Source of the DNA: Lobosporangium transversale
Taxonomy: Eukaryota
Length of the DNA: 64,000 nucleotides
NCBI RefSeq assembly: GCF_002105155.1
Contig: NW_019028993.1
Coordinates: 744,001 to 808,000 of the forward strand
Direction: 5' to 3'
Position 1 is the first letter of the stretch, and each line of letters starts with the position of its first letter. Shown piece after piece: positions 36,823-59,871 of this stretch. Below the pieces are notes generated by a model. That model did no database searches. It was not told where the DNA came from and worked only from the letters and a program-made list of their open reading frames with translations. A program made the position numbers and the translations under genes.

Positions 36823-38645
36823 TGCAAAAGTCAAGGTAGTGTTCTAGGGGGATCTAAGGGTGCAATAAAGGTATCTTTATTCAGGGGGAACTATGCTACA
36901 GAACTAGATAGAAAAGTAGACCTATTTATACTAGTTAATGTCCTGTTGCAAGGAATGCTCTAGAAATATGGGCGAAATACTATGTTGCACAAAATTATTA
37001 TAGTGATTTCGCTTGCATCCTTCCCGTCATGAAGAAACCTATTATCTTGTTTTTCTTGAAGCCTCAAAGACGGCAAGCGCCTCTTTAGCGTTTGCGAGCG
37101 AAGATTTTGTTTCCCAAGTAGCTTCATCTAATGGATAGCCTTTCCAAAGAACGAGCCACTTAGGAGTTTTGCCAAACATTTTGAAGTCAATGATTTTGTC
37201 GACTTCATACTCCTCTTCTCCATCTACAAGCTCGGGGGCAGGGCGTGGTGGTGAGCGGTCGCCGAATTCACGAGGTGACTCAATATAGGGGCGAAGCAGA
37301 TCGGCATTAAAGACTGGATGTTGATGCATGTCAGGCGGTAGTTCCAGCTTGTAGGCATTTTCATTGACCTTCGAAATGATCTTGTAAGGGCCTATGTACT
37401 CAGGTTCCAGTTTCTGCGACGGCCTATTTTTATGTCCCGCGACAGAGATGTTTTCCGAGCTTAAGAGCACCATGTCACCCACAGCAAACGTAGCAGGCCT
37501 GCGAGTTTTATCCGCTTGGGCCTTTTGCCTATTCTGCGCTTCGATGATGGCATCTTGAGCTAGCGCCAAATTCATCGACTGGGTTCGAACAAAATCACTG
37601 ACAGCCGGAACATTGGTATCAGGTGGCTTTAAAAGAGATCCAGGGACTAGTGGATGGTGACCATAGTTCAGAAAGAATGGGGAGAAGCCTGTCGTAGGGT
37701 TGACAGAGTTTTGTATGCGAACTCCATCATAGGCAGTAAAAGATCCCAGTCGTTTTGCTTGTACGATATGTAAGAGCGGAGCATTTCTTCTAATGTTCTG
37801 TTGGCGCGCTCTGTTTGTCCGTCTGATTGTGGATGGAAGGCAGTAGACATGTTAAGTTTAGTGCCCATGAGCTACATCAACGTTGTCCAGAACTTGCCGG
37901 TGAAACGTGAATCTCTGTCTGACACAATTGTCCGAGGCATGCCGTGCAGTCTAAAAACATTGTCGAAAAAGAGTCGTGCAACATCAGAGGCAGTGTCGGT
38001 AGTTCGGCTAGCGCAGAAATGAACTTGCTTGGACAGTTTGTCCACAAAGACCGTGATCGCGTCAAAACCTCTGGCTGTCTTCGGAAGCTTGACAATGAAG
38101 TCCATTGTTACAGTATCCCTCGCCATGCGTGGCCAAAAATATGTTCGTCGCATGCTACTGTACGTTTTATCGAATCCCAAGTGGCCTGATATAGGAGCGT
38201 CGTGAGCGTCATGCAAGAGTTGTGAACGGAGTCCGTCGTCCTTGGGTATACAGAGGCGAGGGCCTTGTCCAGCGTTGATCCAGAGTAGACCATCCACCAC
38301 GAAGTAACGATCCGAGGTGGAGGCATCCTTATACTGATGCACGAGGGGACCTAGAATTGGATCGTGTAGGTAGCAACTGGCTAGTTGTTTTCGAATGCCA
38401 GGGTCTAGATTGATATCCAAGGAGTTCAAAGTAGTAGGTGTAGCCTCCAAGTCCTTGAGGTCCGGTCTTCGTGAAAGAGCATCAGGGACGACGTTATCTT
38501 TACCAGGTTTATACTTGAATACGAAATCATACTCTTGAAGCAACTCCATCCATCTTGCTTGTCTGCGAGTCAAGTTCGGCTGGCTAGGAAAATGTTGTAG
38601 AGTGGCATGGTCGGTATAAACGACAAAGTGAGAACCGTCAAGGTA
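36823..38645 (-). mobile_element. Gy4: decayed chromovirus 3' half (RNaseH-integrase-chromodomain, PPT, 195-bp 3' LTR at 36823-37017)
   Basis: Homologous to the pol at 53351-57103; premature stop at 37872; internal integrase deletion; PPT GACGGGAAGGA. Confidence 0.9.
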
Positions 38646-40261
38646 CAGTGGCTTCCAATATTGTCCAAGTGTTTCATTCTTCCAAAGGAAGACTATAAGT
38701 GTTCAACAGTGAGCAGCGCTTGTGCCCTTGGATCCTAGCTGGGAGCAACCTGGAAGACATACATTATTTGCTCAAAACCTATTAGCGCTCCTGCTTGTTT
38801 CTGATAGCTTTTCACTACTTTGAAATTTTCCTCTCATTTGGACAATTTTTTAACCATCGTTTTTTTTCACCTATCAAAACCTCGTATTGCCCCTTTCGCC
38901 CTTATGACTGCTAACATCCGCTCAGGCATACTTCTTATCAGATTGCGGCAGACCTCCTTCGGTGTCTCCTCCTCCCATATCTGGCTCACTCTTTCCCAGA
39001 GTTCCAGCATGCCTTCTGGAATGGTCCCATGTTCGCGAATTTTTTTTTTTTAAATGATCCCACAAATGCTCAATAGGGTTTAGGTCTGGTGAATTGGCAG
39101 GCCATGTCAGTATTCTACCTGACGCTCTTGTCAATCCAATAGAGGCAAGGTAGGTTGTGACTCTCTTAGCCGTATGCTTAGAATCATTGTCTTGTTGGAA
39201 GATAAATTGCTCTGGATCAATGTTGTACCAATCCACAGTATTCAATAACTCGTCCTGGAGGATACGAATATACAGCTCGGAGTCCGGCGTGGAGTCGATC
39301 TTGGCCAAGTAGCCTGGCCCATCCCACGTCATGCAGCCCCAAACCATGATCGAACCACCACCATGTTTGACTGTGGGCGAAACTAACTTTGGGTCAATAT
39401 CGGCCGCCTTCACCTTTGGTTCTTTATTTGTTTCCACCCAAACATAGCGCATGCCATCAGAAGATATCCTACAAATTTTGGACTCATCGGACCAAATTAC
39501 TCGCTTCCAATCAGCTTCAGTCCAGTCTTTGTGCTGGAGAGCAAAGTCCAGTCGAGCTTTCTTTTGACGTTTTGTTAACCTAGGCTTCTTGACGGCTTTT
39601 TTAGTTTCCATGCCTATATCTCTCAGCGCCCGACGCACCGTATTAGCTGACACCGGATCTTCGTTCTCATCGTTATAGAGTCTGGTAGCATCGACAGCTG
39701 ATGAGACTACACCACGGTGAAGCAACAATCGAATATAATATGCATTCCGGTAATCGAACTTCCGTGGCCGACCAGCTTTGCTTTTACTCCTGGCAGGCCC
39801 TAATGTCTTGGAGATATTATGGACTGAGGACTTGGATATGCCTACTTCTGTGGCAACCTGACGGATGGACTTGTGCTGCTCGAGTAAATGGAGAGCATCC
39901 TCAACAACGGAAGCTTTGATTGGCTTCATCTTTGGAGTGTTTAGAAAGAGCAACGTAGGCTCCTAGAAGAGTGTAGGTGAAGAGTATCTACTCAAGTGTG
40001 TGGGAGATAATTTGAAAAAAATTCAGCAAAGGTGCGTAAAATAAGTGATGGTTATATAATTGTCCAAATGAGATTAAATACTTTTGTCAATGAAAAACCA
40101 TGGTGAATGAGACTAGAGATATTTTAAACTGAACCAGTCCACGTATCATTGGCATACTTGTTTACTCTGATAAAAATAAAAGTGCAAGCAACCATCGCTA
40201 TTATTCTAATCAAGACGGAAAACATGAGCGTGGAACATTTGGACAAATTTGGAAGCCACTG
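38646..40261 (-). mobile_element. Tc1-B transposon; transposase 39929-38874 with a +1 frameshift in an A12 run
   Basis: TIR CAGTGGCTTCCAA..TTGTCCAA, TA flanks; WSDESK, FQQDND and SPDLNPIE motifs. Confidence 0.92.
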
Positions 40262-41526
40262 TATCTTAAGAAGATGAAAGTTAAACACCGGCTCACCTCC
40301 GCGTATCACCCGCGCACAAATGGCAAAACCGAACGCACTAATGGCATCCTCGGCGCCGCATTAACAAAATACGTCGGTGATAAGATGAAGCACAAGTGGG
40401 ACCTCTTTCTAGATCAGGCACTTTTCGCCTGCCGCACCAGAATACATAGCGTATCTAAGAAGTCACCATTCTACCTAGTCTATGGAATCGAGCCCACGAT
40501 ACCTGGCGACCTCACTCGTCCTTATGTACATATTCGATGGAGCGGTTTTTACAGAGGTTCAAGCCGCGAGAGAGGCCGAGCTTGAAAGATTGAGACTTGA
40601 GAGGCTATCAAACGAGGAGCGGCAACAGGCAGCCGCAAGGCTCATGGAGGAAAGGTATAATGAGAGACATGACATCGACTCCGAAGCTCCGAGGCAAGTG
40701 TACGAGATTGGCCACTGGGTTTTAGTAAAAAACATAGCGAAAAGGAAATTTGAATACCCTTGGTATGGACCATTGCGTGTCGAGACGATTACCCCTTTTG
40801 GCGCTTACAAGCTTATCTGGCCCGATGGAAAAGCGAAAATGGACCTTGTGCATAAAGACCGTCTGAAACCGGTGAATCTACCGGCGGGTAGTCCAGAACC
40901 GACGCGCGCATGGTATAAAACCCGCAACAGTCGCGATGAACTCACCATCCCCATGGAGACCATTCAAGAAGAAGACGAGCGAGGACCTCAGTCGGAGCCA
41001 GAAGTAGGTACAGCAGTGCAACCCATACCCCTCGAAGGTTCATCGCGTACAACGGCCCCATCATCATCAGCAAGGCCCGCAGCTACCGCATCGCCCCCTC
41101 CTGCGCGACCACCACGTTCCCTCTCAAGGCCCAATCCAAAGATTGACGCCGCAGGGGCGGCTTGGATTTCTCGTGGGGAGTCTGTCCTAAATCGAGGCAA
41201 CTTAAGCTCACGTCCTATAACAAGTGACGTCATGGTAGGTAGGACCAGAGGTATACCTATAGTGGTACCCTCAAACCCACCCCGCCCTGCCTGGACGTGA
41301 GCTCAGCCACCCGATCCTCCCCGCTATAATAAATAGTGGACTCTCCGTCCCTGAAGTGTTCCTTACCTTTATCTTGGTACAACACTTCAGGTATGCAACC
41401 TCATTCATCTCAGCACTAGTTACTTGTATAGTATTATATGTATCATAAACTAATAAAGACCTTTATCTTGGTACAACACTTCAGTGTGTTCTATGTATTT
41501 GCGTCTTGCTGCGGTTTTTAAGGGCA
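40262..41526 (+). mobile_element. Gy3: Gypsy 3' remnant (integrase end, PPT, 344-bp 3' LTR at 41183-41526)
   Basis: TSAYHPRTNGKTER integrase motif, frameshifted; C-terminus resembles Gy2; LTR TGTCCTAAA...TTTAAGGGCA. Confidence 0.85.
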
Positions 41527-41982
41527 TCTCAGTATAACCCCCGGTTCTTAAGACAGTGATTTTTTCACACAAATGTCGTAGAGCATCTACTAGTGATCTC
41601 TGGAAACTAGTAGGTAATGATGAAAAATGAAGAATTGGGCAAGAGCCTCGTGGTTTTGGGATACGATAGTGATCCTAAGTAATGCTTTGAATGATTTTGA
41701 GGATGCTGCAAAAGGGCATCGATAATAAGAAGAGAGATGCCGTTTTTGCAGTGAAGGAAAAAGCTACTTAAATACTATTTAAAAATGGTAGTAAATAGGA
41801 TGATAGGAAATAAATAAATTGAAAGGAAATACATATTTAGGTAAATGAATAGGCGTCATTTACGACACCCCTCCATTCGGATTGGCACTACTCCTGGAGT
41901 GCCTGGATAAACGCCGTAGCTCTCTCAGATAAATCTCAGCAGCATTTGCTGGAGGAATGATAGGAGAAGGAGGAGCTACAGC

Positions 41983-42292
41983 CAGTGCTCCTATTCGATT
42001 CGAACGGATCGAGTTCGAATAGCTTCGAATAAGCCATATCCTGGTTCGATTCGAATGGTTCGAATGGTTCGAATGGTTCGAATAGGACCACTGGTTACGC
42101 GTAGTGAAAGTATGATCCTTGTACTTTACACCCAATCAAAAAAAAAAAAAAAAAAAAAAAAAAGTTTAAAATTATCATTTACTATTGTTCCAATAGTTCG
42201 AATAAATCGAAGGCTCGAATCATTCGAACCATTCGAATAGCATTCGAATTTTGTTATCTAATCGAATTCGAATGGTTCGAATAGGAGCACTG
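41983..42292. mobile_element. hAT-type MITE (long form) in the Gy2 pol 3' end
   Basis: TIR CAGTGCTCCTATTCGA, 8-bp TSD GCTACAGC, many TTCGAA motifs. Confidence 0.92.
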
Positions 42293-45200
42293 GCTACAGC
42301 ATCACGATCAGCGATGAACTGCTCTTGAGCTACACGTTGTCGTGCAGCATCTTGAATTTGTGCCGTTACTGGATCAAGTTCAATGGGTGATCCGTCCATG
42401 GAATTATCCATAGAAAATTCATCAGAAGCGCTTTTTGGTCTATACCAAGGCGCCTTAGGCAACTCATTATTGACTAGAACAGCCTTCTTCAATCTATCTT
42501 GATGGACTAAGTCAGCTTTTATCGTACCGTCAGGCCATGCAAGCTGAAAGGTATGTAGAGGCGTTGCTCGAACAATACGTAGGGGACCATAAAAACTTTG
42601 ATCAAATTTCTTCTTAGCGAAGTGCTTCACAAGGACGGCGTCACCTGGAAGAAATTTATTTTCGTCGATTTCATTCTGCTTGTCATAGGTAGAAGCCATA
42701 AGACCTGCTGCTTTCTGTTGTAGACCATGTGCTTTGCGACGTATTTCATCAATCTGATCAAACTGTTGTTGTCTGTAAGCTGAGTAATCATCTTCCGTTA
42801 TGAAGTCGAATAAATGAGGGTGAGAAGTATCTCCAGGGATAACTGGATCTAGACCATAAACCAGTTTAAAAGGTGACACTTTAGTGATAGAGTGTATACG
42901 AACTCGACATGCGAATAAGGCTTGTAAAATGTATCTGTCCCAAGCTGTACGATGATTTCCGACAAACTTGTTAATCATTGTGCCTAATAAGCCGTTAAAT
43001 CGTTCGCACTTTCCGCTGGCTCGGGGATGGTATGCAGATGTTAGTTGATGGTTCGTACCCATCCGATTCATATATCGCTGTAAGGTCGCTGCCGTGAAAT
43101 TTGATCCACGGTCTGTGACAATTTCAGATGGACATCCAAACTGCATAAAAATTTCCTCATAAATAAAGTCAGCAACTGCCGATGCAGTCGCTTCATGCAC
43201 AGCACGGGCTAAGGGCCAGTTGGTAGCATAATCAATTGCGGTGATAATCCAACGATTGCCATTCTTGGTTTTCGGTAGGGCTCCTATGAAGTCCATTCCC
43301 CAGCGCTGAAAGGGCAAGGTAGGCTCTAGAGGATGTAGAGGTGCAACAGTGGCATCTTGACGGGCTAACAGCTGACATTCAGGACAAGCTGAGACCATTG
43401 TTATAATATCAGCACGAAGGGTTGGCCACCATACACGAGTTGAAACCAGATCGAATAAGCCGTTTCGGCCAAGATGACCAAAGCCAGCATGATACATATA
43501 TAGAGTATCAGCTCGATTGACGAAAGGAACAAATGGGACTGGGCCGTGTTCTGTTATACGACACAAAGTATCGTGATCGACTTGGAAATGAATTGCTTCA
43601 TCTCTTACTAGTTTAGCAGATTCATCATCTTCAGGTAAGGATCCATCCTTGAAATAGGCATAGATGTATAAAGGCCAGTCAACATTATCAGCGGCAAAGT
43701 CTTTTATAGATGAAGTAGTTGCAAGAGAGGCAACTGTTGGTGTAGATAAACGAGACAAAGCATCTGCGGCTGAGTTATCGACACCTCGACGATATTGAAT
43801 ATCAAGATTGTAGGGCGCCAAAAATTCAATCCATCTGGCCATACGACCGCTCAGATGAGGTTGATTAAATAAAAAGCGTAGGCTAGCGTGATCAGTGAAG
43901 ACGGTTACTACTGATCCTAAGAGGTAAGAGCGCCATGCTCCACATGCTCGGACTATGGCCAATAGTTCCTTTTCATGGACTGGAAAATTTTTCTCAGAAT
44001 TAGAGAGCTTGTGTGACACAAAAGCAACCGGGTGAAGACGGTTATCGATCATTTGTGAAAGAACTGCTCCTGTAGCAATGTCAGAGGCATCAGTTTCCAC
44101 AAAAAATGGCTTAGAAAAGTCTCCGGGGTAAAGAACTGGTGTTGAGGTAAGCAATTGAATCAACTTGTCCATGGCTGCTTGATGGCTAGGAGTCCATTGT
44201 GGTAAAGGTCTCTTTTTGGCATTGTTTTGTCCTTCTTGCTTTAATAAATCAGTCAAGGGGCTTGCAATCTTGGCGAAGTTGCGTATAAATCGCCTGTAGT
44301 AATTTGTGAAGCCTAAGAATGAGCGTAATTCTTGAACATTGGATGGAGTGGGCCAATCTTTAAGGACTGCAACCTTGTCTGGATCGACTTCAATACCTCG
44401 AGAGGATATGACATGACCCAAGAATTTGACTTCAGATACACCAAAGGTACACTTGCTGGGCTTTGCGTGAAGGGAAGCCGATTTCAAAGCTTCTAGAACC
44501 AGCTTGAGATGTTGAACATGCTCTTTCATAGAAGAAGAGAAAATAAGGATGTCGTCTAAAAAGACAACAACGAACTTGTCCAAGAATTCCTTTAAGACAT
44601 CATTGGTTAAAGTCTGGCATGTAGCAGGTCCTCCTGTGAGACCAAAAGGCATGACTACGTATTCGAAATGGCCATATCTTGTATTGAAAGCAGTTTTTGG
44701 AATGTCTGCAGGGTGAATACGCACTTGATTAAAAGCACTTTCTAAGTCTAGCTTGGAGAAAACAGTAGCACCAGTAAATCGATCGAAAAATTCTTCGATC
44801 AAGGGAAGTGGGTACCTATTCTTGATTGTGATTGAGTTCAAAGCTCTATAATCAATACACAGCCGGAGGGAACCATCGCTCTTGGTCACGAATAGAACAG
44901 GGGATGCCCACGGGGAAATGGAAGGTCTGATAAAGCCTTTCTTAAGTAAATCATCAAGTTGTTGCTTTAAAACTAACAACTCTTTTGGGGACATCTTGTA
45001 GGCTCGCTTATAGATCGGGCGTGCGTCTACTGTATCAATGTGATGATCTTGAGGTCTCTGTGGTGGTAGAGTCGACAATGGAGTGAAGACAGAATTTTCA
45101 TATTCGTATAAAAGCTTCTGTAGTGTAGGATCAATATTGTTGTCTTTAATAACTTCCGCTAACGAAAGAGCAGAAATTTTCGGAGTCGATTGTTCATCTT

Positions 45201-46818
45201 GAAGAAAAACCAAACCCAGGTCTTGTTGATTTGACACAGCACGCTGGATGGCTCGATGAGTACACAACGAATCCATTTGAGGTTCCGAAGAAAGAACCTT
45301 TGGGGATGAGTCTTTGGAAGAAGCCTTGTATGATGCTCCATTCACAGTCCAAGTCAAAGTTCCTTGAACATAATCAGTATTTGGATTATACTTCTTTAAC
45401 CAAACCAGGCCAAGGTAAATGTCTTGACTTAGGATATCAGCCACGCAAAATTCCTCGTCATGAGTAAAGTTGCCGATAGTAAATACGAGAGTGACTAAGC
45501 TTGTCAACTTTACGTTACTAAGATTGGCTGTAGTGGCGATTGTTGGCCGATTGAGTTTTGTTTCTTTTTTTATGAGCGAAGGATCATATGCGCGGATCCT
45601 GTTAAGCGCTGTTGTAGAGATCGCGTTGCAATTGCATCCGCCGTCGATAAGGGCAATCAGCTCAGTTGAGCCGACGTTCGTTTTGATGAAGATCTGTTCA
45701 GGCAACATTTTGATGTGATCTTCTAGTGGTGCTGATTTATCTGTCATTGTAGTAGGCTCAACGGTATGAGCTTGTAATTGATTAACATGGGCAGATTTGT
45801 CAGGCTTATTATCAGGCTTTGTAGGGCAAGCGTACCCTTTGTGATCTGTCTTGCCACAGATATAGCATGACCGGGGACCATTGCCACCGTTTTTGTAGCA
45901 TTGTACCTCAGAATGGCCGTGCCTGCCACAAGTAGGACAAGGTGGACGTCTTGTTCTGAGGGAATCTATGTCCATAGTAGATTCCGCAACATGGTCATGG
46001 TCTTGATGACGGTCTTGATGACGGTCTTGGTGTTGTTGTGAATTATTTTGATGAGAATTGTTTTGATGAGAGTTATTTCGATGATAAGTGGTATGTGAGG
46101 TTGAATGTCTGACAAAGTCATTATTTTTGTAAGATGCTTGATGTGGAGGAGGAGTATGAGGTTTGTCATTGGATCTTGATGCCTTGTCTAAGAGTCTCTT
46201 TGCGTCCCAGTTATGAGATTCTGTGCGACAAACATCTAGGACTTCATTCCAGGTCGTGGCGTTCTCTTTCTGAAGCTTGCGCTGGAGCCATAAATCTGCG
46301 ACTCGACGGAAGTTCCATACTTTTTCTCCTTCGGGAATTTTATCACGAAGTGGATAGTATGCTGCCTCGAACTCACGGACGAATTCCATAACATCTGAGT
46401 TCGGTTTCATGGATAAATTGTCGTACTTGTAACGTAGCTCGAACTCATCATCCGCCTTGGCAAATTGTTCCTTAAAATCTTGAGCGAATTTTTTCCAAGT
46501 GAGGATATTCTTAGTCTCAAGATCGTCAATGTGTCTAAGACTCCAATCACGTGCGATCTTTTCCATATGTAGAGCAACACGAACTGTAAAGAAGTTATCA
46601 TTGACGTTGGAAATTTTGTACAAAGCGTCCATAGCGCGTAACCAGGATGAAACATCCGTCTTGCTATCGAATCGTTCAATTCCTGCAAGATTAAAATGCT
46701 GATTGGTTGTAGTTTCCATATTTACATCACCATCGGTGTCAAGAAAGGAATTGGAGGATGTGGTCGTGGTAGAGGAGCTTGCGGTGCTTTGAACGTTGAT
46801 ATTGGATGGGGGTTTCAT
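42220..46818 (-). CDS. Gy2 single-ORF Gag-Pol (2 CCHC knuckles, PR, RT, RNaseH, IN); original stop at 41860 before the MITE insertion
   Basis: CPTC..H..C and CYIC..H..C; LIDGG; LCIDYRALN; FLDD; ETDAS; HHCC and DDE integrase. Confidence 0.95.
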   Translation of the reverse strand: MKPPSNINVQSTASSSTTTTSSNSFLDTDGDVNMETTTNQHFNLAGIERFDSKTDVSSWLRAMDALYKISNVNDNFFTVRVALHMEKIARDWSLRHIDDLETKNILTWKKFAQDFKEQFAKADDEFELRYKYDNLSMKPNSDVMEFVREFEAAYYPLRDKIPEGEKVWNFRRVADLWLQRKLQKENATTWNEVLDVCRTESHNWDAKRLLDKASRSNDKPHTPPPHQASYKNNDFVRHSTSHTTYHRNNSHQNNSHQNNSQQHQDRHQDRHQDHDHVAESTMDIDSLRTRRPPCPTCGRHGHSEVQCYKNGGNGPRSCYICGKTDHKGYACPTKPDNKPDKSAHVNQLQAHTVEPTTMTDKSAPLEDHIKMLPEQIFIKTNVGSTELIALIDGGCNCNAISTTALNRIRAYDPSLIKKETKLNRPTIATTANLSNVKLTSLVTLVFTIGNFTHDEEFCVADILSQDIYLGLVWLKKYNPNTDYVQGTLTWTVNGASYKASSKDSSPKVLSSEPQMDSLCTHRAIQRAVSNQQDLGLVFLQDEQSTPKISALSLAEVIKDNNIDPTLQKLLYEYENSVFTPLSTLPPQRPQDHHIDTVDARPIYKRAYKMSPKELLVLKQQLDDLLKKGFIRPSISPWASPVLFVTKSDGSLRLCIDYRALNSITIKNRYPLPLIEEFFDRFTGATVFSKLDLESAFNQVRIHPADIPKTAFNTRYGHFEYVVMPFGLTGGPATCQTLTNDVLKEFLDKFVVVFLDDILIFSSSMKEHVQHLKLVLEALKSASLHAKPSKCTFGVSEVKFLGHVISSRGIEVDPDKVAVLKDWPTPSNVQELRSFLGFTNYYRRFIRNFAKIASPLTDLLKQEGQNNAKKRPLPQWTPSHQAAMDKLIQLLTSTPVLYPGDFSKPFFVETDASDIATGAVLSQMIDNRLHPVAFVSHKLSNSEKNFPVHEKELLAIVRACGAWRSYLLGSVVTVFTDHASLRFLFNQPHLSGRMARWIEFLAPYNLDIQYRRGVDNSAADALSRLSTPTVASLATTSSIKDFAADNVDWPLYIYAYFKDGSLPEDDESAKLVRDEAIHFQVDHDTLCRITEHGPVPFVPFVNRADTLYMYHAGFGHLGRNGLFDLVSTRVWWPTLRADIITMVSACPECQLLARQDATVAPLHPLEPTLPFQRWGMDFIGALPKTKNGNRWIITAIDYATNWPLARAVHEATASAVADFIYEEIFMQFGCPSEIVTDRGSNFTAATLQRYMNRMGTNHQLTSAYHPRASGKCERFNGLLGTMINKFVGNHRTAWDRYILQALFACRVRIHSITKVSPFKLVYGLDPVIPGDTSHPHLFDFITEDDYSAYRQQQFDQIDEIRRKAHGLQQKAAGLMASTYDKQNEIDENKFLPGDAVLVKHFAKKKFDQSFYGPLRIVRATPLHTFQLAWPDGTIKADLVHQDRLKKAVLVNNELPKAPWYRPKSASDEFSMDNSMDGSPIELDPVTAQIQDAARQRVAQEQFIADRDAVASAPIRTIRIRLDNKIRMLFEWFE

Positions 46819-46946
46819 TGTTGATAAATAAAAGGTCTTTGTTTGAAAAAAAGGGCAAATAAGGGGATGAATAAATAAAAATGTGTGTAAACAAGTAAAA
46901 AGGTAACAAATAAGGAAAGAGATAAATGAAACGGAAAAAGAAAGCT

Positions 46947-46986
<40 letters not shown>

Positions 46987-47564
46987 ATATGCGCGAAAAA
47001 TAAAAGTGTGTGGTGAAGGTAAAGAATTTGGTTGAGGAAAAGCAAAAAGTTTGTAATATGATCACAACAAAAGGATGAATATGTACAATCAAAAAGTGTC
47101 AAGAAGAATAATAATGGAGTAGTAACTAGGTCGCGTTAGAGGTTAAAAGAACCTTTGCTACCATTTGTCGTAGAGCATCTACTAGTGATCTCTGGAAACT
47201 AGTAGGTAATGATGAAAAATGAAGAATTGGGCAAGAGCCTCGTGGTTTTGGGATACGATAGTGATCCTAAGTAATGCTTTGAATGATTTTGAGGATGCTG
47301 CAAAAGGGCATCGATAATAAGAAGAGAGATCTTTAATAACTGCTAATTTTCTGAGAATTCATAATGAGAATAATGAAGATAAACTCACCTGCAAAAGGGC
47401 ATCGATAATAAGAAGAGAGATGCCGTTTTTGCAGTGAAGGAAAAAGCTACTTAAATACTATTTAAAAATGGTAGAAAATAGGATGATAGGAAATAAATAA
47501 ATTAAAAGGAAATACATATTTAGGTAAATGAATAGGCGTCATTTACGACAACATAAGCAATGTT

Positions 47565-47637
47565 GCTTTCCTAGCTCAGTTGGCAGAGCGTCAGTCTCAT
47601 AATCTGAAGGTCGTGAGTTCGAACCTCACGGAGAGCA
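47565..47637 (+). tRNA. tRNA-Met(CAT), elongator type
   Basis: Acceptor stem GCTTTCC/GGAGAGC, D-arm GCTC/GAGC, anticodon loop CTCATAA, T-loop TTCGAA, T5 terminator at 47641. Confidence 0.95.
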
Positions 47638-47647
47638 ATCTTTTTAT

Positions 47648-48381: not shown

Positions 48382-48576
48382 TGCAAAAGTCAAGGTAGTG
48401 TTCTAGGGGGATCTAAGGGTGCAATAAAGGTATCTTTATTCAGGGGGAACTATGCTACAGAACTAGATAGAAAAGTAGACCTATTTATACTAGTTAATGT
48501 CCTGTTGCAAGGAATGCTCTAGAAATATGGGCGAAATACTATGTTGCACAAAATTATTATAGTGATTTCGCTTGCA
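48382..48576 (-). mobile_element. Solo LTR of the Gy4 family
   Basis: Appears identical to 36823-37017; no matching TSD. Confidence 0.9.
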
Positions 48577-48813: not shown

Positions 48814-49479
48814 CAGTGCTCCTATTCGATTCGAACGGTTCGATTCGAATGGTTCGAATGACGCGAATTATTCGAGTAGTGCGAGTGTCGAATGACGCGA
48901 ATTATTCGAGTAGTTCGAGTGTCGAATGACGCGAATTATTCGAGTAGTTCGAGTGTCGAATGACGCGAATTATTCGAGTAGTTCGAGTGTCGAATGACGC
49001 GAATTATTCGAGTAGTTCGAATGTCGAATGACGCGAATTATTCGAGTAGTTCGAGTGTCGAATGGTTTGTCACGAACAGCAAGCAATGTCTAGCTCATGA
49101 ATTGATGAATGACTTTTGTCTGATTCGAATCTGAAAAAGATCACGTGTGCTTGATTAATTTGTTCCGCTCATTTCCTTCACTCATTCCTCCATGCATAGT
49201 TTGCCTGTCAAGCCAAGTCGCGTCTCTTAGTTTTCTAGCTCCGTGAATAGCTCCAAGGATTCTAGAAGAGCTATAAACCAATAACCAAGACTTATAGTGC
49301 CAAGGAACCTTGAAATAAGATTGCACCAGATATCTTCCTCGGATCCTGTGTATTAAGTTAACTCAACACTTGGAGTTCCGCATATGGTAAAAGTCCTTAG
49401 GAAATATTTGAGTAAGCTTTATTTAGAATTCTTGAAGCGCGTCTCCGCTTCAGTCAAACAAGTATAAATATGATAGATT
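48814..49479. mobile_element. hAT-family element left end with subterminal tandem array
   Basis: Starts CAGTGCTCCTATTCGATTCGAACGG like 41983; right TIR not found. Confidence 0.7.
48854..49057. repeat. 34-bp tandem repeat x6 (TCGAATGACGCGAATTATTCGAGTAGTTCGAGTG)
   Basis: Contiguous units with no spacers. Confidence 0.95.
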
Positions 49480-50039: not shown

Positions 50040-51071
50040 TCAATAGATAGTATTCCAACCATGGGCATCACTGACAGCTTGGAGTCTCTTATGGATACCT
50101 ATGATGAGTTTGCGGCAGAAGTCCACTGGGATCCTGTACCATTCAACCGATATTCGCTCCCATAGTTCATCACAGCTCTTAGCTCGCTCCGGATACCTAG
50201 AGAGCCGCCTATCCAATTCTGCCCACATGTGTTCAATAGGGTTGAGGTCAGGGGATTGTGCTGGCCACTCTAGAAGTGTACCTTCCTCTTCTGTCAGATG
50301 TACTGACTCCAAATACTTCCTAACAATCTTCGCCGTGTGCTTCGAGTCATTGTCGTGCTGAAAGACGATATCGCTTTTAGTTAGGCCCCAGTCATCAAGC
50401 GACATCTGTAGATCCTCCTGCAGTAGTTTGATGTAAAGTTGTGCGTCCATATTATTGTCAATCTTTGCAATGTATCCAGGTCCGTACCATGAGAAGCATG
50501 ACCACACTTTAACATTACCACCCCCAAACTTGACAGTGCCTTGCACCGAACTGCGAGTGAGGCGTCCCGGATTGTCGCCCCAGATCCACTGCACGCCATC
50601 AGAGCAGATTCGGTTTATTTTCGATTCATCTGACCAAATAACCTTTTTCCAATCTTCCAGAGTCCATTCCTTATACTTATTGATAAAATGCAAACGAGCT
50701 TTAATATGTCGTCGACGTAAAGCTGGCTTATGTACACGCCTCTTTGCTGTCAATCCTAACTCCTTGAGCCGTCGTCTAACGGTGGTCTCAGAAACAGCCG
50801 CTGGTATGAGCTGGTTGGCTCTAACGGTGGCCTCAACTGCAGACTTGAGTGTACCTCGTTTCATGTTCACCTTAAGATACTGCATGATACCTCTAGGTAC
50901 TTTCCTTGGTCGACCGCCTTTATTGACTGGCATGTACTCCTTATTATGTGCATAGATCCTGGTGGCCGTCGCTATTGATATACCAACACTAGCAGCAGTT
51001 TCTCTAGTAGACATGCCTCCCATCATTAACCTCCTGGCTTCGTTGACTTTCCTTTGTGGAGTGGGTCTCAT
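50040..51071 (-). CDS. Tc1-C transposase (intact ORF)
   Basis: GRPRK, WSDESK, FQHDND, SPDLNPIE. Confidence 0.92.
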   Translation of the reverse strand: MRPTPQRKVNEARRLMMGGMSTRETAASVGISIATATRIYAHNKEYMPVNKGGRPRKVPRGIMQYLKVNMKRGTLKSAVEATVRANQLIPAAVSETTVRRRLKELGLTAKRRVHKPALRRRHIKARLHFINKYKEWTLEDWKKVIWSDESKINRICSDGVQWIWGDNPGRLTRSSVQGTVKFGGGNVKVWSCFSWYGPGYIAKIDNNMDAQLYIKLLQEDLQMSLDDWGLTKSDIVFQHDNDSKHTAKIVRKYLESVHLTEEEGTLLEWPAQSPDLNPIEHMWAELDRRLSRYPERAKSCDELWERISVEWYRIPVDFCRKLIIGIHKRLQAVSDAHGWNTIY

Positions 51072-52316
51072 ATTCTGTGAAGGTATAGTTAAGAGAGAGT
51101 TAAGCAAGTGTTCATAAAGGAAAGAGAGAAAAGACCTTTTATACTTGCATTAAATGACGTCCAAAAGTTGTCATGGGCAACATTTTAGACCACATGTGAA
51201 ACTGATTCAATGACCTGCATGAACAAAAAAGTCATTAGCTATTCAAATGAGACAAGCTAATGTCACAACGCATCACTATGACGTAGAAGAAGACGGGAGC
51301 TTTATTAAACCAAAGTATGAGTGGTGTATGCATATACGGTTTCTAGGAATGAAAAAAAGAAATGCACATGGGAATGAATTATTGAATCAGTGTTTTTAAT
51401 TGTTTTCGCCATTTTAAAAAATGGATTCGCTATTTTCAATTTGAGTTTCTCCAAAGAAACACAAGATTTATCCAATTTAAGCTAATATGTAAAATTATCC
51501 CACAAGTTATCCGAATGTGTCTAAAATATTATCAAGTTCTCCAAACTGATAACCGAACCGATTATTAGAATTATCCAAACATCATGTCTTTATTAGCAAG
51601 ATAGGCGACCAATTTGAGTAACTTTACATACATATTATCCTAAATATTAGCGTTTTTTTTTTTTTTTTTTTCACTGAACTCTCACAGACCTAGAGATTAT
51701 ATTCTCTGTTGAGAGACCTTGGGAAGAAGGTGGTTGCATGACGAATCCAACTTTGACAATCCTTCCGAGATATGGACTTGAATGCGTCCTGAAACCTAGA
51801 GCGCATGGTCTCACCAGCCTCAAGGCGGCTCTTCTTGAACGTGTTCTTAACTTTTGACCAGCATTCTTCAATCGGATTCAAGAACGGTGAGTATGGGGGT
51901 AGATATTCACAAAAATGCCCTGCTTCTTCTATGAGGTCCCTGACTAGCGGTGCAAACGTGTTATACAATACTGACTCAAACCTTTGAGGAGGGCTCAACT
52001 ATCACGCGCACCCCAGGCGCCAAGACGCCAAGCCCAAGTGCCAAGACACCAAGCCCCAACCCTATCAATTATCAGTATAAATAGTCCACTACGTTATAGC
52101 CAAATAAAGTATCCTTTGACCTTCGATTCCACCTAAGATCACCTTTGATTGTTACTATTTACATGGTAGCAAAGGTTCATCGAACCACCGACCCCGCCAG
52201 AAACCGCTTATATTTCCCTCTGATATTTTTCCCTAGATCCCTCTGATATTTTCCTAGATAAAATTTAAAAATTTACCCCTGCATTTGATTTTTTTTTTTT
52301 TTTTTTTTTTTTTGCC

Positions 52317-53288
52317 ATGGACAACCTCACCACTTCCTTGAAAGCTCTTAACCTTGATGCCAGTACCAGCCTATCCGTGCAGAACGCTGTGCAAACCTTC
52401 CTCGAATCCCGACAGGATAGTGCTTCTAGCGCTGCCGCCTTTAATGACCATGTCCGCACGGTGGCTGCTGTGATAAAACCTACCAAACCAGAACCATACG
52501 AGGGAAATGTCGACGCTGTCGCGGTCCTCAACTTCTTGGAGAACCAAGAAGAGTACTTCGAGATCATGGAGCTTAACCACTCCCGTTGGGTCCGATATAC
52601 CGTTGTCAACCTGAAAGGAGACGCCAAGGCATGGTGGCGAGACTCGGAAATGACAATTGATACACCATGGGACACTTTCCGAAGTAAATTCATCGAAAAC
52701 TTCACACCCCCTGACACGGCTTCTTCAGCCCAGAAAGCACTGGTTCAATTAAAACAAGGTAAATCCTCAGTAGCGGAATACACTGCCAAATTCCGCCGCC
52801 TCCAACGCCTCACACCCAAACTGGAGGAATCATGGCTTGTCCTCCATTATACCTACGGCCTTGTAGAAGACACAAGCAAGGAAGTCCTCCTTCGCCAGCC
52901 TCAGACTCTCAACCAGGCCATCAAGCAGGCTACGATGATCCACAGCATTTTACATTCCTCTAGACCCCCCATCATGACAAGCCAAACAAGCCAACCCACA
53001 CCGACCCCGATGGACCTAGACGCAATGCAGATGATGTTCAATAACTTCCTACTACAGAGTACAAACTCCACAGGCTTAGCGAACTTCCATCGCCCCCCCT
53101 CGACTAACAACAGACCACTCTCCAAGCTCACCGAAAATGACAGAACAAAACTGCGCCGCGCAGGCGCTTGCTTTCGCTGCAGAAAGAAGGGACACATGGC
53201 CAAGAACTGCCGCGTGACTAGGAACTTGAACAACCTGGAACAACAAGACGACTACGACGACTCGGGAAAAGAGGAGAGCGAGCTGTAG
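52317..53288 (+). CDS. Gy5 Gag
   Basis: AKAWW, LKQG..SVAEY, PTPMDLD, CFRCRKKGHMAKNC. Confidence 0.93.
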   Translation: MDNLTTSLKALNLDASTSLSVQNAVQTFLESRQDSASSAAAFNDHVRTVAAVIKPTKPEPYEGNVDAVAVLNFLENQEEYFEIMELNHSRWVRYTVVNLKGDAKAWWRDSEMTIDTPWDTFRSKFIENFTPPDTASSAQKALVQLKQGKSSVAEYTAKFRRLQRLTPKLEESWLVLHYTYGLVEDTSKEVLLRQPQTLNQAIKQATMIHSILHSSRPPIMTSQTSQPTPTPMDLDAMQMMFNNFLLQSTNSTGLANFHRPPSTNNRPLSKLTENDRTKLRRAGACFRCRKKGHMAKNCRVTRNLNNLEQQDDYDDSGKEESEL

Positions 53289-56200
53289 ACCAGGCCAGCC
53301 TCGCTCTCACCACCAACCCTCGAGTCCTGGGCTCTAGAGGGCGTAGTCATATGGATTTAAGTAGTAACAACAGTAATAAAAACTCTAGTTCTCCTAAATC
53401 CATGATTATGCCTTCTCGCTCCTCTCCCATATTTTCTCTATCCTCTCTCTTATCATTACCCTCTAAAAGCACCTTGCACCACACCACTTCCATTCCTCCG
53501 GATTCCCTAAATCACCTCTCCCCCGATTCCCATCCCGCGTCATCTGTCACTGAAATCAAATCATCTTCAAACCAAGACACAAATGAAAATTCACCTACCC
53601 CCTCTACTTCCCACGAACACCTTGCTAGTAAACCACCCCGTCGTCGTCGTCGTCATGCCACACACCTCCAATCCCTGTCCGCTGTCTACACCAATGCGAG
53701 ACGACTACTAACCTTCATTGGGGCCGTCAACGGACACCCTGCGCGAATCCTCATTGATGGTGGAGCAGAAGGAAATGTATTGAGTTCAAAATTTTGCAGA
53801 AAACATAACATTATCATAGACAACGCGAACCCTATCCCTATCATTCATCCGAATGGCACAGCAGTCATGTCCCCAGGAACCGCATCTGTTACCCTTGAAC
53901 GTGGTTCCTATGGTGAAAAGATTCAAAGTATCATCTACCCCTCGAAAAAATATGATCTCATCCTAGGGAAACCTTGGCTAACCGCAGTCAATCCCCAAAT
54001 CAACTGGCGCACTAACGATTTACACTTTGAACACGATGGTAAACACATACTATGGGAATGTCGAGGGCATACCTCCTCCTCCGCTCGTCAAAATTGCCTT
54101 TCTGCCATAAACTTTGCTGCATTAGCATTAGAACCCGAAACGACAACATTCTTGGCCCAAGTAAGAACCACTTCACCACCAACAAACCTAGACTCAACAC
54201 TACCCGAATCGATTCAACAAATTGTCCAAGTAGAATTTCCAGACCTCTTTCCTGACACACTACCGGACGGACTCCCTCAGGATCGTGGCGATAGCATGCG
54301 AATCGAGACTGAAAATAATACCGATCCACCTGTAAGACCAGTCATTCGCTTATCAATTGCTGAATTAGACGAACTAAAAACACAACTCACAGAACTACTG
54401 CGCAAAGGCTTCATCTCTCCAAGTACATCACCCTACGGAGCACCAGTTTTATTCGTTAAAAAGAAGGATGGCGGACTGAGGATGTGTGTAGACTACAGAG
54501 GATTAAACAAAATAACCCGTAAGAATCGCCATCCACTACCAAGAATCGACGAGCTAATAGATCGTTTCAGGACAGCACGATTTTTTACAAAGCTCGACTT
54601 ACTATCCGGATATCATCAAATGCGCGTTCATCCAGACGACCGACATAAAACGGCATTTCGAACACGCTACGGTCACTATGAGTTTAACGTCGTCCCTTTC
54701 GGACTCACCAACGCACCTGCCGCCTTTTCAGCCATGATGCGCAACGTGTTGGATCCTGTGCTGGATAAATGCACCGTAGTTTACCTAGATGATATACTGA
54801 TTTATTCTGATAACAAAGAGCAACATCTACAAGACATCAGAAACGTTCTTAGGCTCCTACGCAAGGCAGGCCTCTTTTGCAAGCTTTCCAAGTGTTCATT
54901 TATGCAAGAGGAGACAGAGTTCCTAGGCCATGTTATATCCAAAGATGGACTCAAAACAAACGGAGCACTGGTTAAGGCAGTTAGAGAATGGCCAACACCC
55001 ACAACACAGCGCCACGTCATGCAGTTCCTTGGATTAACAAACTTCTATCATCAATACATCGACCACTATGCTGATATCGCGCTTCCCCTTACTGATCTGT
55101 TAGGCTCAACTACAACATTCTACTGGAGCAAGCCTCACCAAGAGGCCTTTGAAAGACTGAAGCAGGCAGTCACCATGGCACCCGTACTCAGAATTTTTGA
55201 CCCTGCCCTAGCAACTTCCGTCGAAACTGATGCATCAGGTTTCGCCATTGGTGCAGTCTTGTTCCAAACAGATCACAAGGGCGAATCGCGCCCTGTTGCC
55301 TTTACATCACGAAAGTTGAGCTCTGCAGAACGAAACTACCCAACCCATGAGCAAGAATTACTAGCTGTCGTCCACGCCTTAAGAACATGGCGATACTATT
55401 TGGATGGATCTCATTTTATTGTCTATACTGACCATGCCACATTGCAGCATTTTCCAACCCAGCCAAACCTGACTCGGAGACAGGCCAGATGGATGGAACT
55501 CCTACAAGAATACGACTTCAACTTCAAGTACAAACCAGGCAAAGACAACATCGTCCCCGACGCTCTCTCAAGGAGGCCTGACCACAAGGCGCAGGATCCC
55601 GCCAGTGAGCAGATTAACTCCATAGAAATAAGTTTGGACCCAGGCTTACGGCAGCGCCTGATAAAGTGTTACCCATATGACCTTAAGTTAGGATCACTTT
55701 ACGAAAGCTGCCGCGAGGCAAGTCCCTCTGATCGTTATTTTGTTGCTGATGACCTATTGTGGATTAACATCGCTGGACAGACACGTTTATGTATCCCGAA
55801 TGATCCTAACATTCGCGCTCTCCTACTTCATGATGCACATGATTCTCCCATTGCTGGCCACCTCGGCTTCGAGAAAACATATGAAACCATGCGAAGGACT
55901 TTCTTTTGGCCACGAATGGCCCGAGACACCAAGACTTACATTGCATCATGCGAACAGTGCCAACGAAATAAACCACTGCTTCATCATCCTGCCGGATTAT
56001 TCAAACCTCTCGATATACCTCTTGAACGATGGGAAACTGTCACCATGGACTTCATTGGCCCTTTACCCAAGACGAACCGAGGGTTCAATGCCATAACTGT
56101 ATTCGTAGACAAGTTATCCAAACAAGTCCACTTCTGCCCTAGCCATACAACGGACACTGCTTCAGATATCGCGCGACTCTTCTTCAATAATGTCTTCCGA

Positions 56201-57103
56201 CTCCATGGCATGCCACGAGCTATTGTATCGGACAGAGACTCAAGATTCACGGGACACTTCTGGACCACATTGATGAAGCTCATGGGAACTAAACTCCATA
56301 TGTCTACAGCATTCCATCCTCAGACAGACGGACAGACGGAGCGAGCCAACAGGACCCTGGAGGAAATGCTACGATCTTATGTCTCGTACAAACAGAATGA
56401 CTGGGACTTGCTCTTACCAATGATGGAATTTGCATACAACAACTCCGTCAACCCCTCCACAGGGTTTTCCCCCTTTTTCCTAAACCACGGTCATCATCCC
56501 ATTGTCCCATCATCCCTCTTGAAACCACCAACAACAGATGTACCGGCTATCTCTACCTTCATTTCCACTCAAGCCTCTGCGTTGGCGCAAGCACAAGACG
56601 CAATAGCGACAGCTCAGGACATCCAAAAACGCCAAGCAGATAAAGCACGATCACCCGCCAGGTTCACTGTAGGCGATAGTGTCTTACTGAGTACGGAGCA
56701 TATCACTGTCGCAGCTCACGCAAACCGACCCTCCAAAAAGTTAGAACCAAAATTCATTGGACCATTCAAAATCATAGAGAAGATCAACGACAACGCGTAC
56801 AAGCTCGAGCTACCTCCGAACATGAAACAACACCCTGTCTTCAATACAGATTTATTACGACATTATCACGAATCCCCGGAGAATTTCGGCGAACGAGCAC
56901 CTGCCAGACCCCCACCAGATTTAGTCGATGGCGAAGAAGAATATGAAGTGGAAAAGATTCTGGATTACAAACTATTTGGCAGAACCCCCAAGTGGCTCGT
57001 GAAATGGAAGGGATATCCTGACGAAGAAGCAACATGGGAACGGAGATCCTCACTAGTTAATGCAAAAGAAGCACTGGAGGAATTTCAAAAAATGCAACAG
57101 TAA
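53264..57103 (+). CDS. Gy5 Pol (PR-RT-RH-IN-chromodomain), entered by -1 frameshift
   Basis: LIDGGA, MCVDYRGLN, YLDD, ETDAS, HHCC/DDE, GPF, EEYEVEKI..WLVKWKGY..EATWE. Confidence 0.95.
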   Translation, partial: GKRGERAVDQASLALTTNPRVLGSRGRSHMDLSSNNSNKNSSSPKSMIMPSRSSPIFSLSSLLSLPSKSTLHHTTSIPPDSLNHLSPDSHPASSVTEIKSSSNQDTNENSPTPSTSHEHLASKPPRRRRRHATHLQSLSAVYTNARRLLTFIGAVNGHPARILIDGGAEGNVLSSKFCRKHNIIIDNANPIPIIHPNGTAVMSPGTASVTLERGSYGEKIQSIIYPSKKYDLILGKPWLTAVNPQINWRTNDLHFEHDGKHILWECRGHTSSSARQNCLSAINFAALALEPETTTFLAQVRTTSPPTNLDSTLPESIQQIVQVEFPDLFPDTLPDGLPQDRGDSMRIETENNTDPPVRPVIRLSIAELDELKTQLTELLRKGFISPSTSPYGAPVLFVKKKDGGLRMCVDYRGLNKITRKNRHPLPRIDELIDRFRTARFFTKLDLLSGYHQMRVHPDDRHKTAFRTRYGHYEFNVVPFGLTNAPAAFSAMMRNVLDPVLDKCTVVYLDDILIYSDNKEQHLQDIRNVLRLLRKAGLFCKLSKCSFMQEETEFLGHVISKDGLKTNGALVKAVREWPTPTTQRHVMQFLGLTNFYHQYIDHYADIALPLTDLLGSTTTFYWSKPHQEAFERLKQAVTMAPVLRIFDPALATSVETDASGFAIGAVLFQTDHKGESRPVAFTSRKLSSAERNYPTHEQELLAVVHALRTWRYYLDGSHFIVYTDHATLQHFPTQPNLTRRQARWMELLQEYDFNFKYKPGKDNIVPDALSRRPDHKAQDPASEQINSIEISLDPGLRQRLIKCYPYDLKLGSLYESCREASPSDRYFVADDLLWINIAGQTRLCIPNDPNIRALLLHDAHDSPIAGHLGFEKTYETMRRTFFWPRMARDTKTYIASCEQCQRNKPLLHHPAGLFKPLDIPLERWETVTMDFIGPLPKTNRGFNAITVFVDKLSKQVHFCPSHTTDTASDIARLFFNNVFRLHGMPRAIVSDRDSRFTGHFWTTLMKLMGTKLHMSTAFHPQTDGQTERANRTLEEMLRSYVSYKQNDWDLLLPMMEFAYNNSVNPSTGFSPFFLNHGHHPIVPSSLLKPPTTDVPAISTFISTQASALAQAQDAIATAQDIQKRQADKARSPARFTVGDSVLLSTEHITVAAHANRPSKKLEPKFIGPFKIIEKINDNAYKLELPPNMKQHPVFNTDLLRHYHESPENFGERAPARPPPDLVDGEEEYEVEKILDYKLFGRTPKWLVKWKGYPDEEATWERRSSLVNAKEALEEFQKMQQ

Positions 57104-57183
57104 CACCAAAATTATTTTTCTCTGTTTCTTTTTTCTTTATTTTTCTTCTTTTTTTTTCTCTTCTCTCTTCCTTTCTTCTTTTA

Positions 57184-57831
57184 CTATCTCCTTTCCTCTC
57201 TTCCTCTCTTCCTTTTACCTCCCTTCTCTGCCCACTCCAGCATGGTAACAACCGCCATTTCCTCCATCAATCGACGACGTTCCCGTGCTCGCTCTTCTAC
57301 ACTCACATCCTGGGTCTGCAATGCACGAAACTCAAACGCTATCAGCGAAGAACACTCTCTTATCATCGACAGTCTCGGTCCCTCATGACGACTCCTCTTC
57401 CGTCGCCTCTCCGGCTCCTCAGGACCATCCTCTCCATCAACAGCTTCCCACTGTGCATTGTCACTCGTCGAACTTACAGAAGCCAAACGGACCCCAGCCC
57501 CCTCCACTCCCGACGTCGCTGAAGTACTCGACTCCACATGATCTCTGGCTTCCCTCACAGTTGGCGAATCGCCCACCTCAGGATACTCCTCCTTCGGTAG
57601 CATCCGCCCCAAGATTACAGGTGAAAGACGTGGAGACAATTCCAACCTCGTATCTAGCTCTTCCTCCTGAGGCACAGAATAAGGCTGTGTGGCGTCAGGG
57701 TCATCTGAAGAACCCTGGGAGCTTGGTACCGCCGACCGCTGTGTCAATACAACTTCAGAAAACACGCCACCAGAAGGAGCACGACCTTTACGCGGTGGCA
57801 TTGGATGAGAAGCCTTGCGTGAAGACATCAT
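57184..57831 (-). CDS. Hypothetical antisense ORF (~215 aa) inside the Gy5 3' region
   Basis: ATG-initiated open frame bounded by low-complexity AT-rich sequence; basic NLS-like clusters. Confidence 0.5.
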   Translation of the reverse strand: MMSSRKASHPMPPRKGRAPSGGVFSEVVLTQRSAVPSSQGSSDDPDATQPYSVPQEEELDTRLELSPRLSPVILGRMLPKEEYPEVGDSPTVREARDHVESSTSATSGVEGAGVRLASVSSTSDNAQWEAVDGEDGPEEPERRRKRSRHEGPRLSMIRECSSLIAFEFRALQTQDVSVEERARERRRLMEEMAVVTMLEWAEKGGKRKRGREERR

Positions 57832-59174: not shown

Positions 59175-59275
59175 CAGTGCTCCTATTCGGTTTAAAATTT
59201 TGTCAATTGATACATTATTTATTTTTTAATCTGAAACATCATAATTGACAAAATTTAAACCGAATAGGAGCACTG
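59175..59275. mobile_element. hAT-type MITE (short form) in intron 2 of the Tc1-E transposase
   Basis: TIR CAGTGCTCCTATTCGG; 8-bp TSD TTGTTTAG. Confidence 0.92.
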
Positions 59276-59871
59276 TTGTTTAGTACAAATTGCCATCAAA
59301 CTTGATTATTACCTCCAAGCGGTCCTTGGATTCAGGTGCACCGCTCTAGCCGCTTCGGCTACTGTACACATGTGATTGGTCCAGTAGTCGATCAGCCTTT
59401 GGGAGGCCTCTTCCGGGACTTTAGAATACTCGGTAGGCCTGCTGCGTTTCCTTTTACGGCACATGTCTCTCAGACTTGGCTCCTCAAATTCGAGGGCAGA
59501 GTCATATTCAACCTGGTCAAAAGGAGCCCTAGGTGATTGGTTGAGCTCTCTTTCTAGTTCATCCTCGTCAAATTGGTGCTGGGAATAGATACAGGTCATC
59601 TTAGGTCCTTTCCCTTTGTTATTGTTTCTGTCAATAGGCTCGCTAGCGACAGATGAACCAATGACAGGGATTTCGGGAGCAGGCGCATCCACGGCAGGTG
59701 TACCAAAGTCAAGCTCGTGGCCAGTATATGTGGGAGGTGTCCAAGGATTGTATGGGTCTACCTCATCGTCGCTCTCTTCCTCTGCTATCAATCGACGAGT
59801 TCGAGTACGAGACTGTGATGAGGAACCTAGATGAACGAACGAAATGCCGCCATCATAAGCATGACGATATA

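Follow-up and report, generated by a model that had tools for sequence, protein, structure and literature searches.

Reverse transcription normally gives an LTR retrotransposon two identical LTRs (PMC6894440, available text). The question raised by Gy2, a Ty3/Gypsy element within the 64,000-nucleotide stretch of Lobosporangium transversale DNA analyzed here (the window), is why its 5′ LTR carries a 91-nt segment with GT-AG ends that is missing from its 3′ LTR, and what such a segment might do inside an LTR.

Structure and genomic position of Gy2

Gy2 occupies positions 41574-47550 of the minus strand, as delimited by self-comparison and alignment, and all of its features are given on that strand. 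The 5′ LTR (47166..47550, 385 bp, TGTCGTA...TACGACA) contains the segment, and the 3′ LTR (41574..41867, 294 bp) is without it. The TG...CA LTRs are accompanied by a primer-binding site (47150..47163), whose 14 nt are shared with another element within the window and which is assumed here to match initiator tRNA-Met, and by a polypurine tract (41868..41878). A single gag-pol ORF (42220..46818) encodes Gag, reverse transcriptase (RT), RNase H, and integrase in this order (Pfam matches at amino acids 108-234, 686-845, 916-1044, and 1142-1306). No Pfam match to an aspartic protease was obtained between Gag and RT at E 0.001, with a DGG motif visible by eye in Gy2 and close relatives likewise without a Pfam protease match. 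No Chromo match was obtained in Pfam after the integrase, in contrast to two other elements of the window. Judged by its proteins, Gy2 is an ordinary Ty3/Gypsy element, and it belongs to a Mortierellaceae-associated, non-chromodomain clade; among its close relatives, the one named protein comes from Entomortierella parvispora and is 57% identical across the RT-to-integrase part. A host gene of the window encodes a product with 99% identity to a protein labeled Lobosporangium transversale, which makes the host a member of the Mortierellaceae. A Penelope-like identity was considered and is ruled out by the DDE integrase, the true LTRs, and the primer site.

The end of the ORF reads into a MITE (41983..42292, 310 bp), presumably hAT-like, which lies near the end of the integrase gene and has terminal inverted repeats flanked by an 8-bp target duplication; it also has internal 9-nt repeats, and a related sequence with a 34-bp tandem array is found at 48814-49091. 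The target-site duplication of Gy2 itself matches at four of five positions (ACAAA vs ACATA). A tRNA-Met(CAT) gene (47564..47638, plus strand) lies 13 bp from the end of the 5′ LTR and is the likely integration target of Gy2. A neighboring truncated element of the same clade, with its 3′ LTR at 41183..41555 (plus strand), ends 18 bp from the Gy2 3′ LTR, and both elements therefore lie just upstream of one tRNA-Met gene (47551-47638 region), which suggests that they share tRNA-gene targeting. Loose ends of contigs in two sequencing runs (X1 and X7) also join a Gy2-type LTR to the start of the neighbor's LTR elsewhere.

The surrounding cluster holds further elements. A chromovirus at 51951-58334, probably recent, has 213-bp LTRs that are 100% identical, gag and pol in separate frames, and an AATAAA right after its TATA box, and it shares the 14-nt primer site of Gy2. 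Identical 195-bp LTRs at 36823-37017 and 48382-48576, 11.6 kb apart, enclose the cluster and the tRNA gene, and the right one is probably a solo LTR because it is without primer site and purine tract. Remnants of Tc1/mariner-type transposases occur at 34593-35487, 38922-39962, 50040-51149, and 58310-61477, with one inverted pair 99% alike.

An intron-like segment bounded by a direct repeat

Alignment bore out the sequence-only reading that the two LTRs are separated by a 91-nt block and two substitutions, both of the latter (LTR positions 47 and 76) upstream of the block. The block is edged by a perfect 33-bp direct repeat, of which the 3′ LTR keeps a single copy (41706-41738). In the 5′ LTR, a TATA-like box, TATTTAAG (47450..47457), which would act as promoter, stands 36 nt before repeat 1 and is followed by the end of U3 (47422..47438), whose sequence complements the last part of repeat 1 plus the donor and which is predicted to fold onto them only where U3 is transcribed, at the 3′ LTR. 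Repeat 1 (47389..47421) starts C|A, ends CAG, and would serve both as R and as first exon. The 91-nt GT-AG segment (47298..47388) consists of a 58-nt unique spacer and repeat 2 (47298..47330), which is identical to repeat 1 and carries the 3′ splice site, and which would also be the RNA 3′ end and the acceptor of strand transfer; the putative U5 (47166..47297) completes the LTR. Some retroviral R regions are shorter than the Gy2-clade repeat. The R of Tto1 is reported as 100-125 bp (PMC3061985, available text), and the putative R of 26-34 nt in this clade is short beside that, a point against this role of the repeat.

Excision of the block as CAG|GTGAGT...TTGCAG| yields the 3′ LTR exactly, as had been claimed, and represents the last of 34 deletion registers, all of which give the identical 3′ LTR because the repeat is perfect over 33 bp. 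The two routes, splicing and plain deletion, yield one and the same product, and the sequence of Gy2 therefore cannot distinguish them. The segment, GTGAGT...CCCTTTTGCAG (91 nt), has a host-like donor, a pyrimidine tract, and a suitable length for a U2 intron. For comparison, six introns of doa4 in the window measure 94-397 nt, and one of the six has a GTGAGT donor.

A perfect CTRAY branch point had not been seen in the segment, which holds near the acceptor: none lies within 60 nt of it in Gy2 or in the relative L009, the nearest in Gy2 being 68 nt off, and TTAAA is found at -36. CTAAT is found in the neighboring element and in the relative L008. An ATTAAA (47332..47337), 1 nt before repeat 2, is the sole sense-strand match to A[AT]TAAA in the Gy2 5′ LTR; this hexamer is likely the poly(A) signal and may double as the branch site. 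The hexamer lies 32-36 nt from the acceptor and overlaps CTAAT in the neighbor, and it is possibly just a branch site, since one host intron carries ATTAAC at a similar position. The Gy2 3′ LTR contains no A[AT]TAAA hexamer, and the loss of the segment would deprive this copy of a poly(A) hexamer of its own.

The frequency of such an arrangement was assessed with exact repeats of at least 20 bp and a spacing of 45-500 in the window plus 103 loci (663 kb, 328 strand-views). Repeats ending in AG and followed by GT occurred in 3 of the 328 strand-views, all three being LTRs of the Gy2 clade, and the repeat-bounded AG|GT layout is therefore not a product of chance; at a threshold of at least 12 bp, the corresponding count was 5 of 1000 strand-views. 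Introners are introns that are themselves mobile and insert at unrelated sites (PMC12130899, available text), and this identity was rejected, as the segment was found in the window inside the LTR alone and not at unrelated sites.

Occurrence of the layout in related elements

The same arrangement is present in the 3′ LTR of the neighboring element, where repeat 1 (41365-41390) and repeat 2 (41459-41484), each 26 bp, bound a 94-nt intron (41391-41484, GTATGC...CAG) on the plus strand, with an AATAAA (41452-41457) that overlaps CTAAT and stands 1 nt before repeat 2; another AATAAA lies in the TATA region of this LTR. Among 148 metagenome loci, 80 were kept, and just two of these 80 exceeded 50% integrase identity to Gy2, namely L008 (66%) and L009 (54%). 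These two closest of the kept relatives share the repeat-bounded layout. In L009 the repeat measures 33 bp and the segment 101 nt, with the intron end seen in both LTRs, and L008 has a 34-bp repeat with a 94-nt period, in which repeat 2 is present in two parts at the contig ends and was recognized by eye rather than by the scan. The ends of L008 fit the predicted RNA and were considered as RNA evidence, which was rejected because they abut within repeat 2 as in a cut circular contig.

The layout was scored in these four families only, and its spacing is similar in all of them. The repeats (26-34 bp) are 50-59% alike between the four families and identical inside one LTR wherever both copies are whole. 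The TATA-like box lies at -36 (Gy2), -35, -35, and -35 from repeat 1, which starts Y|A in all four, and no TATAWA was found at the equal offset before repeat 2 in any of the four. GT follows repeat 1 in 4/4 families, so that the donor directly abuts the repeat, and the hexamer stands 1 nt before repeat 2 in three families and 2 nt before it in L008 (AATACA), being unique within the LTR in Gy2 and L009.

Seven relatives at a greater distance, judged by eye to show all or most of their LTR, lacked the layout, as did two chromovirus LTR families in the window. Similarly, scans of viral contigs gave seven distant loci, none with the layout, the genome-contig scan gave 16 loci, all with identity of at most 41%, and mismatch-tolerant scans elsewhere returned just scattered or tandem-array matches. 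An integrase tree of 33 rows places the four elements with the layout on one side of a 98/96 branch and the eight labeled negatives on the other; 1 of 500 label shuffles equaled this separation, in a test in which 21 rows are unlabeled and kin share labels. Two further features were seen among the relatives: two identical 153-bp LTRs stand in tandem at the 3′ end of one of them (L011:4673-4982), and integrase relatives occur on contigs of bacterial MAGs (L088-L098), which are of the retrotransposon kind where inspected (L088-L091) and are likely mis-binned eukaryotic DNA.

Evidence from sequencing-run contigs

Contigs from four of eight sequencing runs were examined, three of them DNA (X1, X2, and X3) and one guessed to be RNA (X7); X1 is perhaps the source of the window, and X2 and X3 share flanks and perhaps represent one strain. 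In 3/3 DNA runs, the depth of the intron piece relative to the mean of U3 and U5 was close to one (1.02, 0.88, and 1.07), and intron-plus is clearly the common form of the Gy2-family LTR. The depth of the LTR was about 50, 42, and 32 times single-copy in the three runs and that of the inner region about 6 times, values that are rough and, being contig depths, are not copy numbers. The intron-minus 3′ LTR is known from the assembly alone, as the run contigs cannot phase the 33-bp repeat.

Two diverged LTRs were also found. One, an intron-plus form, occurs in each of the three DNA runs, with 6 of its 14 differences listed. In addition, the contigs of all three DNA runs contain a diverged LTR whose U3 and repeat pass directly into U5-like sequence, and at its loose end (X1 and X3) 21 of 30 letters match U5 and 11 of 30 match the intron (hand count). 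Intron-less LTRs thus occur in DNA outside the assembly, although the family of this diverged LTR might never have had the intron.

In X7, one contig (depth 136) omits exactly the 91 nt, which read CT..AC on the plus strand; no intron piece is listed among the contigs of this run, and the joint that skips the 91 nt is absent from the contigs of all three DNA runs. Two upstream U3 pieces have depths of just 12 and 15 in X7, and the guess that the run is RNA agrees with how small it is and how unevenly its depths are spread (12 to 930). The joint represents missing intron words and not a spanning read, because overlaps of 30 nt give words shorter than the repeat. This evidence comes from one run of one study, in which a weak intron loop could have been cleaned from the contigs, and blanks in cover (the 5′ leader in X7 and the tRNA-side junction in X2 and X3) are uninformative. 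In X7 (records 25-26), the sequence runs on past the LTR end into a 1034-nt record with a depth of 930. The flank of this record is found in the X2 DNA too (loose end at 47166), and the record may be an LTR-driven transcript of a neighboring gene.

Given the host-like donor, the absence of the segment from the guessed-RNA run, and the layout in three more families, the 91-nt segment is very likely a real intron. The sequence-only interpretation is thus partly supported, without the LTR difference itself being proof of loss through RNA, because an identical sequence would result from a deletion by way of the 33-bp repeats.

A proposed cycle of splicing and rebuilding

The layout probably works as a self-rebuilding intron, which would be spliced at the 5′ LTR and regained at strand transfer. 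With R duplicated, transcription would start at repeat 1, and at the 5′ LTR the donor would be free, so that the intron would be spliced out together with the LTR's sole predicted poly(A) hexamer. At the 3′ LTR, the end of U3 would pair with repeat 1 and the donor and block splicing, and the hexamer would then be used, with the RNA cleaved at a putative site within repeat 2. Strong-stop DNA, the complement of repeat 1 plus U5, would anneal to repeat 2 as its putative target, and the pairing with U3 would also steer its jump away from repeat 1. Extension from repeat 2 would copy the intron, repeat 1, and U3, and both progeny LTRs would regain the intron. Since repeat 1 would be copied into repeat 2 in each cycle, the repeats would be identical within a family and free to diverge between families. 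Such rebuilding would explain the depth ratios and the X7 contig, and likewise the fixed spacings and why the repeats are identical. A broader claim, to which we lean only slightly, is that fungal LTR retrotransposons evolved, probably more than once, a duplicated-R LTR with a poly(A)-bearing spliceosomal intron that is protected by U3 and rebuilt every cycle.

The predicted fold was evaluated as the cost of opening the donor with and without 60 nt of U3, with 200 U3 shuffles per element. With U3, the predicted cost rises from 5.3 to 10.0 kcal/mol in Gy2 (2/200 shuffles reach this value), from 1.6 to 11.7 kcal/mol in the neighbor (0/200), and from 4.1 to 6.1 kcal/mol in L009 (2/200), and no masking of the donor by U3 is predicted in L008, for which 189 of 200 shuffles are as high. 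In all four families, the predicted pairing with U3 is 0.46-0.73 over the last 15 nt of repeat 1 and 0.04-0.14 over repeat 2, and donor bases +1 to +3 are predicted to pair with U3 at a modest 0.08-0.49. The complementarity between U3 and repeat 1 in Gy2 had been spotted by eye before it was tested. When U3 is transcribed, as it is at the 3′ LTR, it is therefore predicted to fold over the donor in three of the four families.

An improbable alternative to rebuilding is that the packaged RNA keeps both introns, that, as in foamy virus, the donor's effect comes from U1 binding, and that the intron is simply inherited, with splicing confined to some transcripts, for example, those from solo LTRs. 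Foamy virus provides a precedent, as it suppresses 5′ poly(A) by U1 binding and masks the donor of the 3′ LTR (PMC3694450, available text), and the X7 LTR contig continues into flank and may therefore derive from a solo LTR and not from a full element. However, simple inheritance offers no reason for the identity of the repeats within a family while families differ by 41-50%, nor for a repeat that starts 35-36 nt past a TATA-like box and ends at the acceptor. It is very improbable that the segment is not an intron at all and that repeats duplicated by slippage surround a hairpin, with the RNA starting at repeat 2 and the hexamer being a U3 poly(A) signal, for although a hexamer just upstream of R is known in RSV, MMTV, and HTLV-1 (PMC3694450, available text) and an RNA start at repeat 2 would also leave X7 without intron words, GT follows repeat 1 in 4/4 families as against 0/325 of the other long-repeat strand-views, and the spacing of the TATA-like box is set to repeat 1 and not to repeat 2.

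Origin of the difference between the Gy2 LTRs

The intron-less 3′ LTR of Gy2 is the exception and, on balance, probably a by-product, formed by deletion between the repeats after insertion. A later deletion is the simplest account because one event suffices. The sequence-only reading had offered two options, this one and a mis-jump of strong-stop DNA combined with intermolecular transfer; both give the same product, and the former is now favored over the latter. The Gy2 copy has evidently aged in place, as is indicated by one substituted letter in each LTR that is unseen in the run contigs (which drop rare variants), the mismatch at one of five positions in the target duplication, and the insertion of the MITE. 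That reading had also allowed for this 3′ LTR being the sole intron-minus copy without evidence of splicing, and this is not so: evidence of the splicing type is available, and a diverged intron-less LTR is present in the DNA contigs. The LTR difference is best regarded as a natural intron knockout and not as proof of the route of its loss.

A rather unlikely route is that strong-stop DNA jumped to repeat 1 and that the 5′ LTR was supplied by plus-strand strong-stop DNA of another molecule, or else that RT slipped between the repeats on one strand. Intermolecular plus-strand transfer is reported to occur in Ty1. A mis-jump predicts exactly the observed polarity, intron-plus at the 5′ side and intron-minus at the 3′ side, intermolecular first transfers are documented (PMC6894440, available text), and the diverged intron-less LTR in the DNA contigs is consistent with it. 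Against this, two events are required as compared with one for deletion, and the Gy2 LTRs have no subfamily differences, the one contig-unseen letter in each fitting mutation after insertion. Still less likely, a collapse of the 3′ LTR over the 33-bp repeat in assembly or polishing would agree with the intron-plus depth of about 1:1 in the three DNA runs and with the 91-nt joint being listed in none of them, yet one missing copy among 30-50 falls below the resolution of these depths, the window is gap-free over the nested repeat cluster (0 N), and its two other copies of the layout stayed uncollapsed. If the layout works as proposed, a difference in length between two LTRs need not date an insertion or mark it as a recombinant one.

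Comparison with known systems

The proteins of Gy2 are ordinary for Ty3/Gypsy, but its LTR design is without match in the literature searched. That literature yielded no natural LTR whose R is duplicated around an intron, and subscription journals, Repbase, or supplements may describe one. Introns spliced from the RNA of LTR elements are normally lost in the progeny, and retrotransposition assays depend on this loss (PMC2923131, available text). If the proposed cycle is true, the Gy2 clade would provide a design, occurring in nature, by which an intron is spliced and yet passed on, breaking the rule of progeny loss, and an LTR element could keep a spliced intron indefinitely; more speculatively, such elements might resemble intron-bearing host genes.

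The tRNA-targeting elements Ty3 and Tj1 resemble Gy2 in the Ty3/Gypsy domain order and in insertion upstream of a tRNA gene (13 bp in Gy2), and they differ in that the available text of PMC4600332 mentions no LTR intron; Gy2, in turn, belongs to a Mortierellaceae-associated clade without chromodomain. Penelope-like elements likewise keep a spliced 5′ UTR intron in or at the pseudo-LTR, near the start site, and the significance of this retention is called unknown by its authors (Craig et al., 2021; PMC8557442, available text). In contrast to Gy2, they have no integrase, a GIY-YIG nuclease, and pseudo-LTRs in tandem (PMC8557442, available text).

An intron is also spliced within LTR sequence in EF1alpha/HTLV promoters, through the donor and acceptor of the HTLV-1 LTR (bioRxiv 10.1101/2023.01.28.526022, available text). 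There, however, splicing is described in vectors, the accessible part of that preprint describes no repeat-bounded layout, and the poly(A) signal of HTLV-1 lies in U3 (PMC3694450, available text). Similarly, in split-intron retroviral vectors, reverse transcription gives the provirus an intron that the RNA template could not splice (Ismail et al., 2000, via the available text of PMC3182074). These vectors differ in being engineered and used one time, with the donor in the 3′ LTR and the acceptor inside the vector, and, as far as PMC3182074 describes them, they are without duplicated R and without renewal in each cycle.

The closest likeness in regulation is to foamy virus (Schrom et al., 2013; PMC3694450, available text), whose R contains a donor that keeps 5′ poly(A) suppressed, and where a fold dependent on U3 hides this donor at the 3′ LTR. 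Both systems have a donor in R that lies upstream of the poly(A) signal (R and signal being putative in the Gy2 clade), together with a U3-dependent fold that blocks the donor of the 3′ LTR, which is here predicted in 3/4 families. Foamy virus differs in its single 193-nt R and in suppression by U1 binding, and neither an LTR acceptor nor a duplicated R is described in the available text of PMC3694450. In the Gy2 clade, by contrast, the signal would be spliced out and then rebuilt, which, if true, would be a further solution to the 5′-LTR polyadenylation problem, beyond the mechanisms listed in the available text of PMC3694450.
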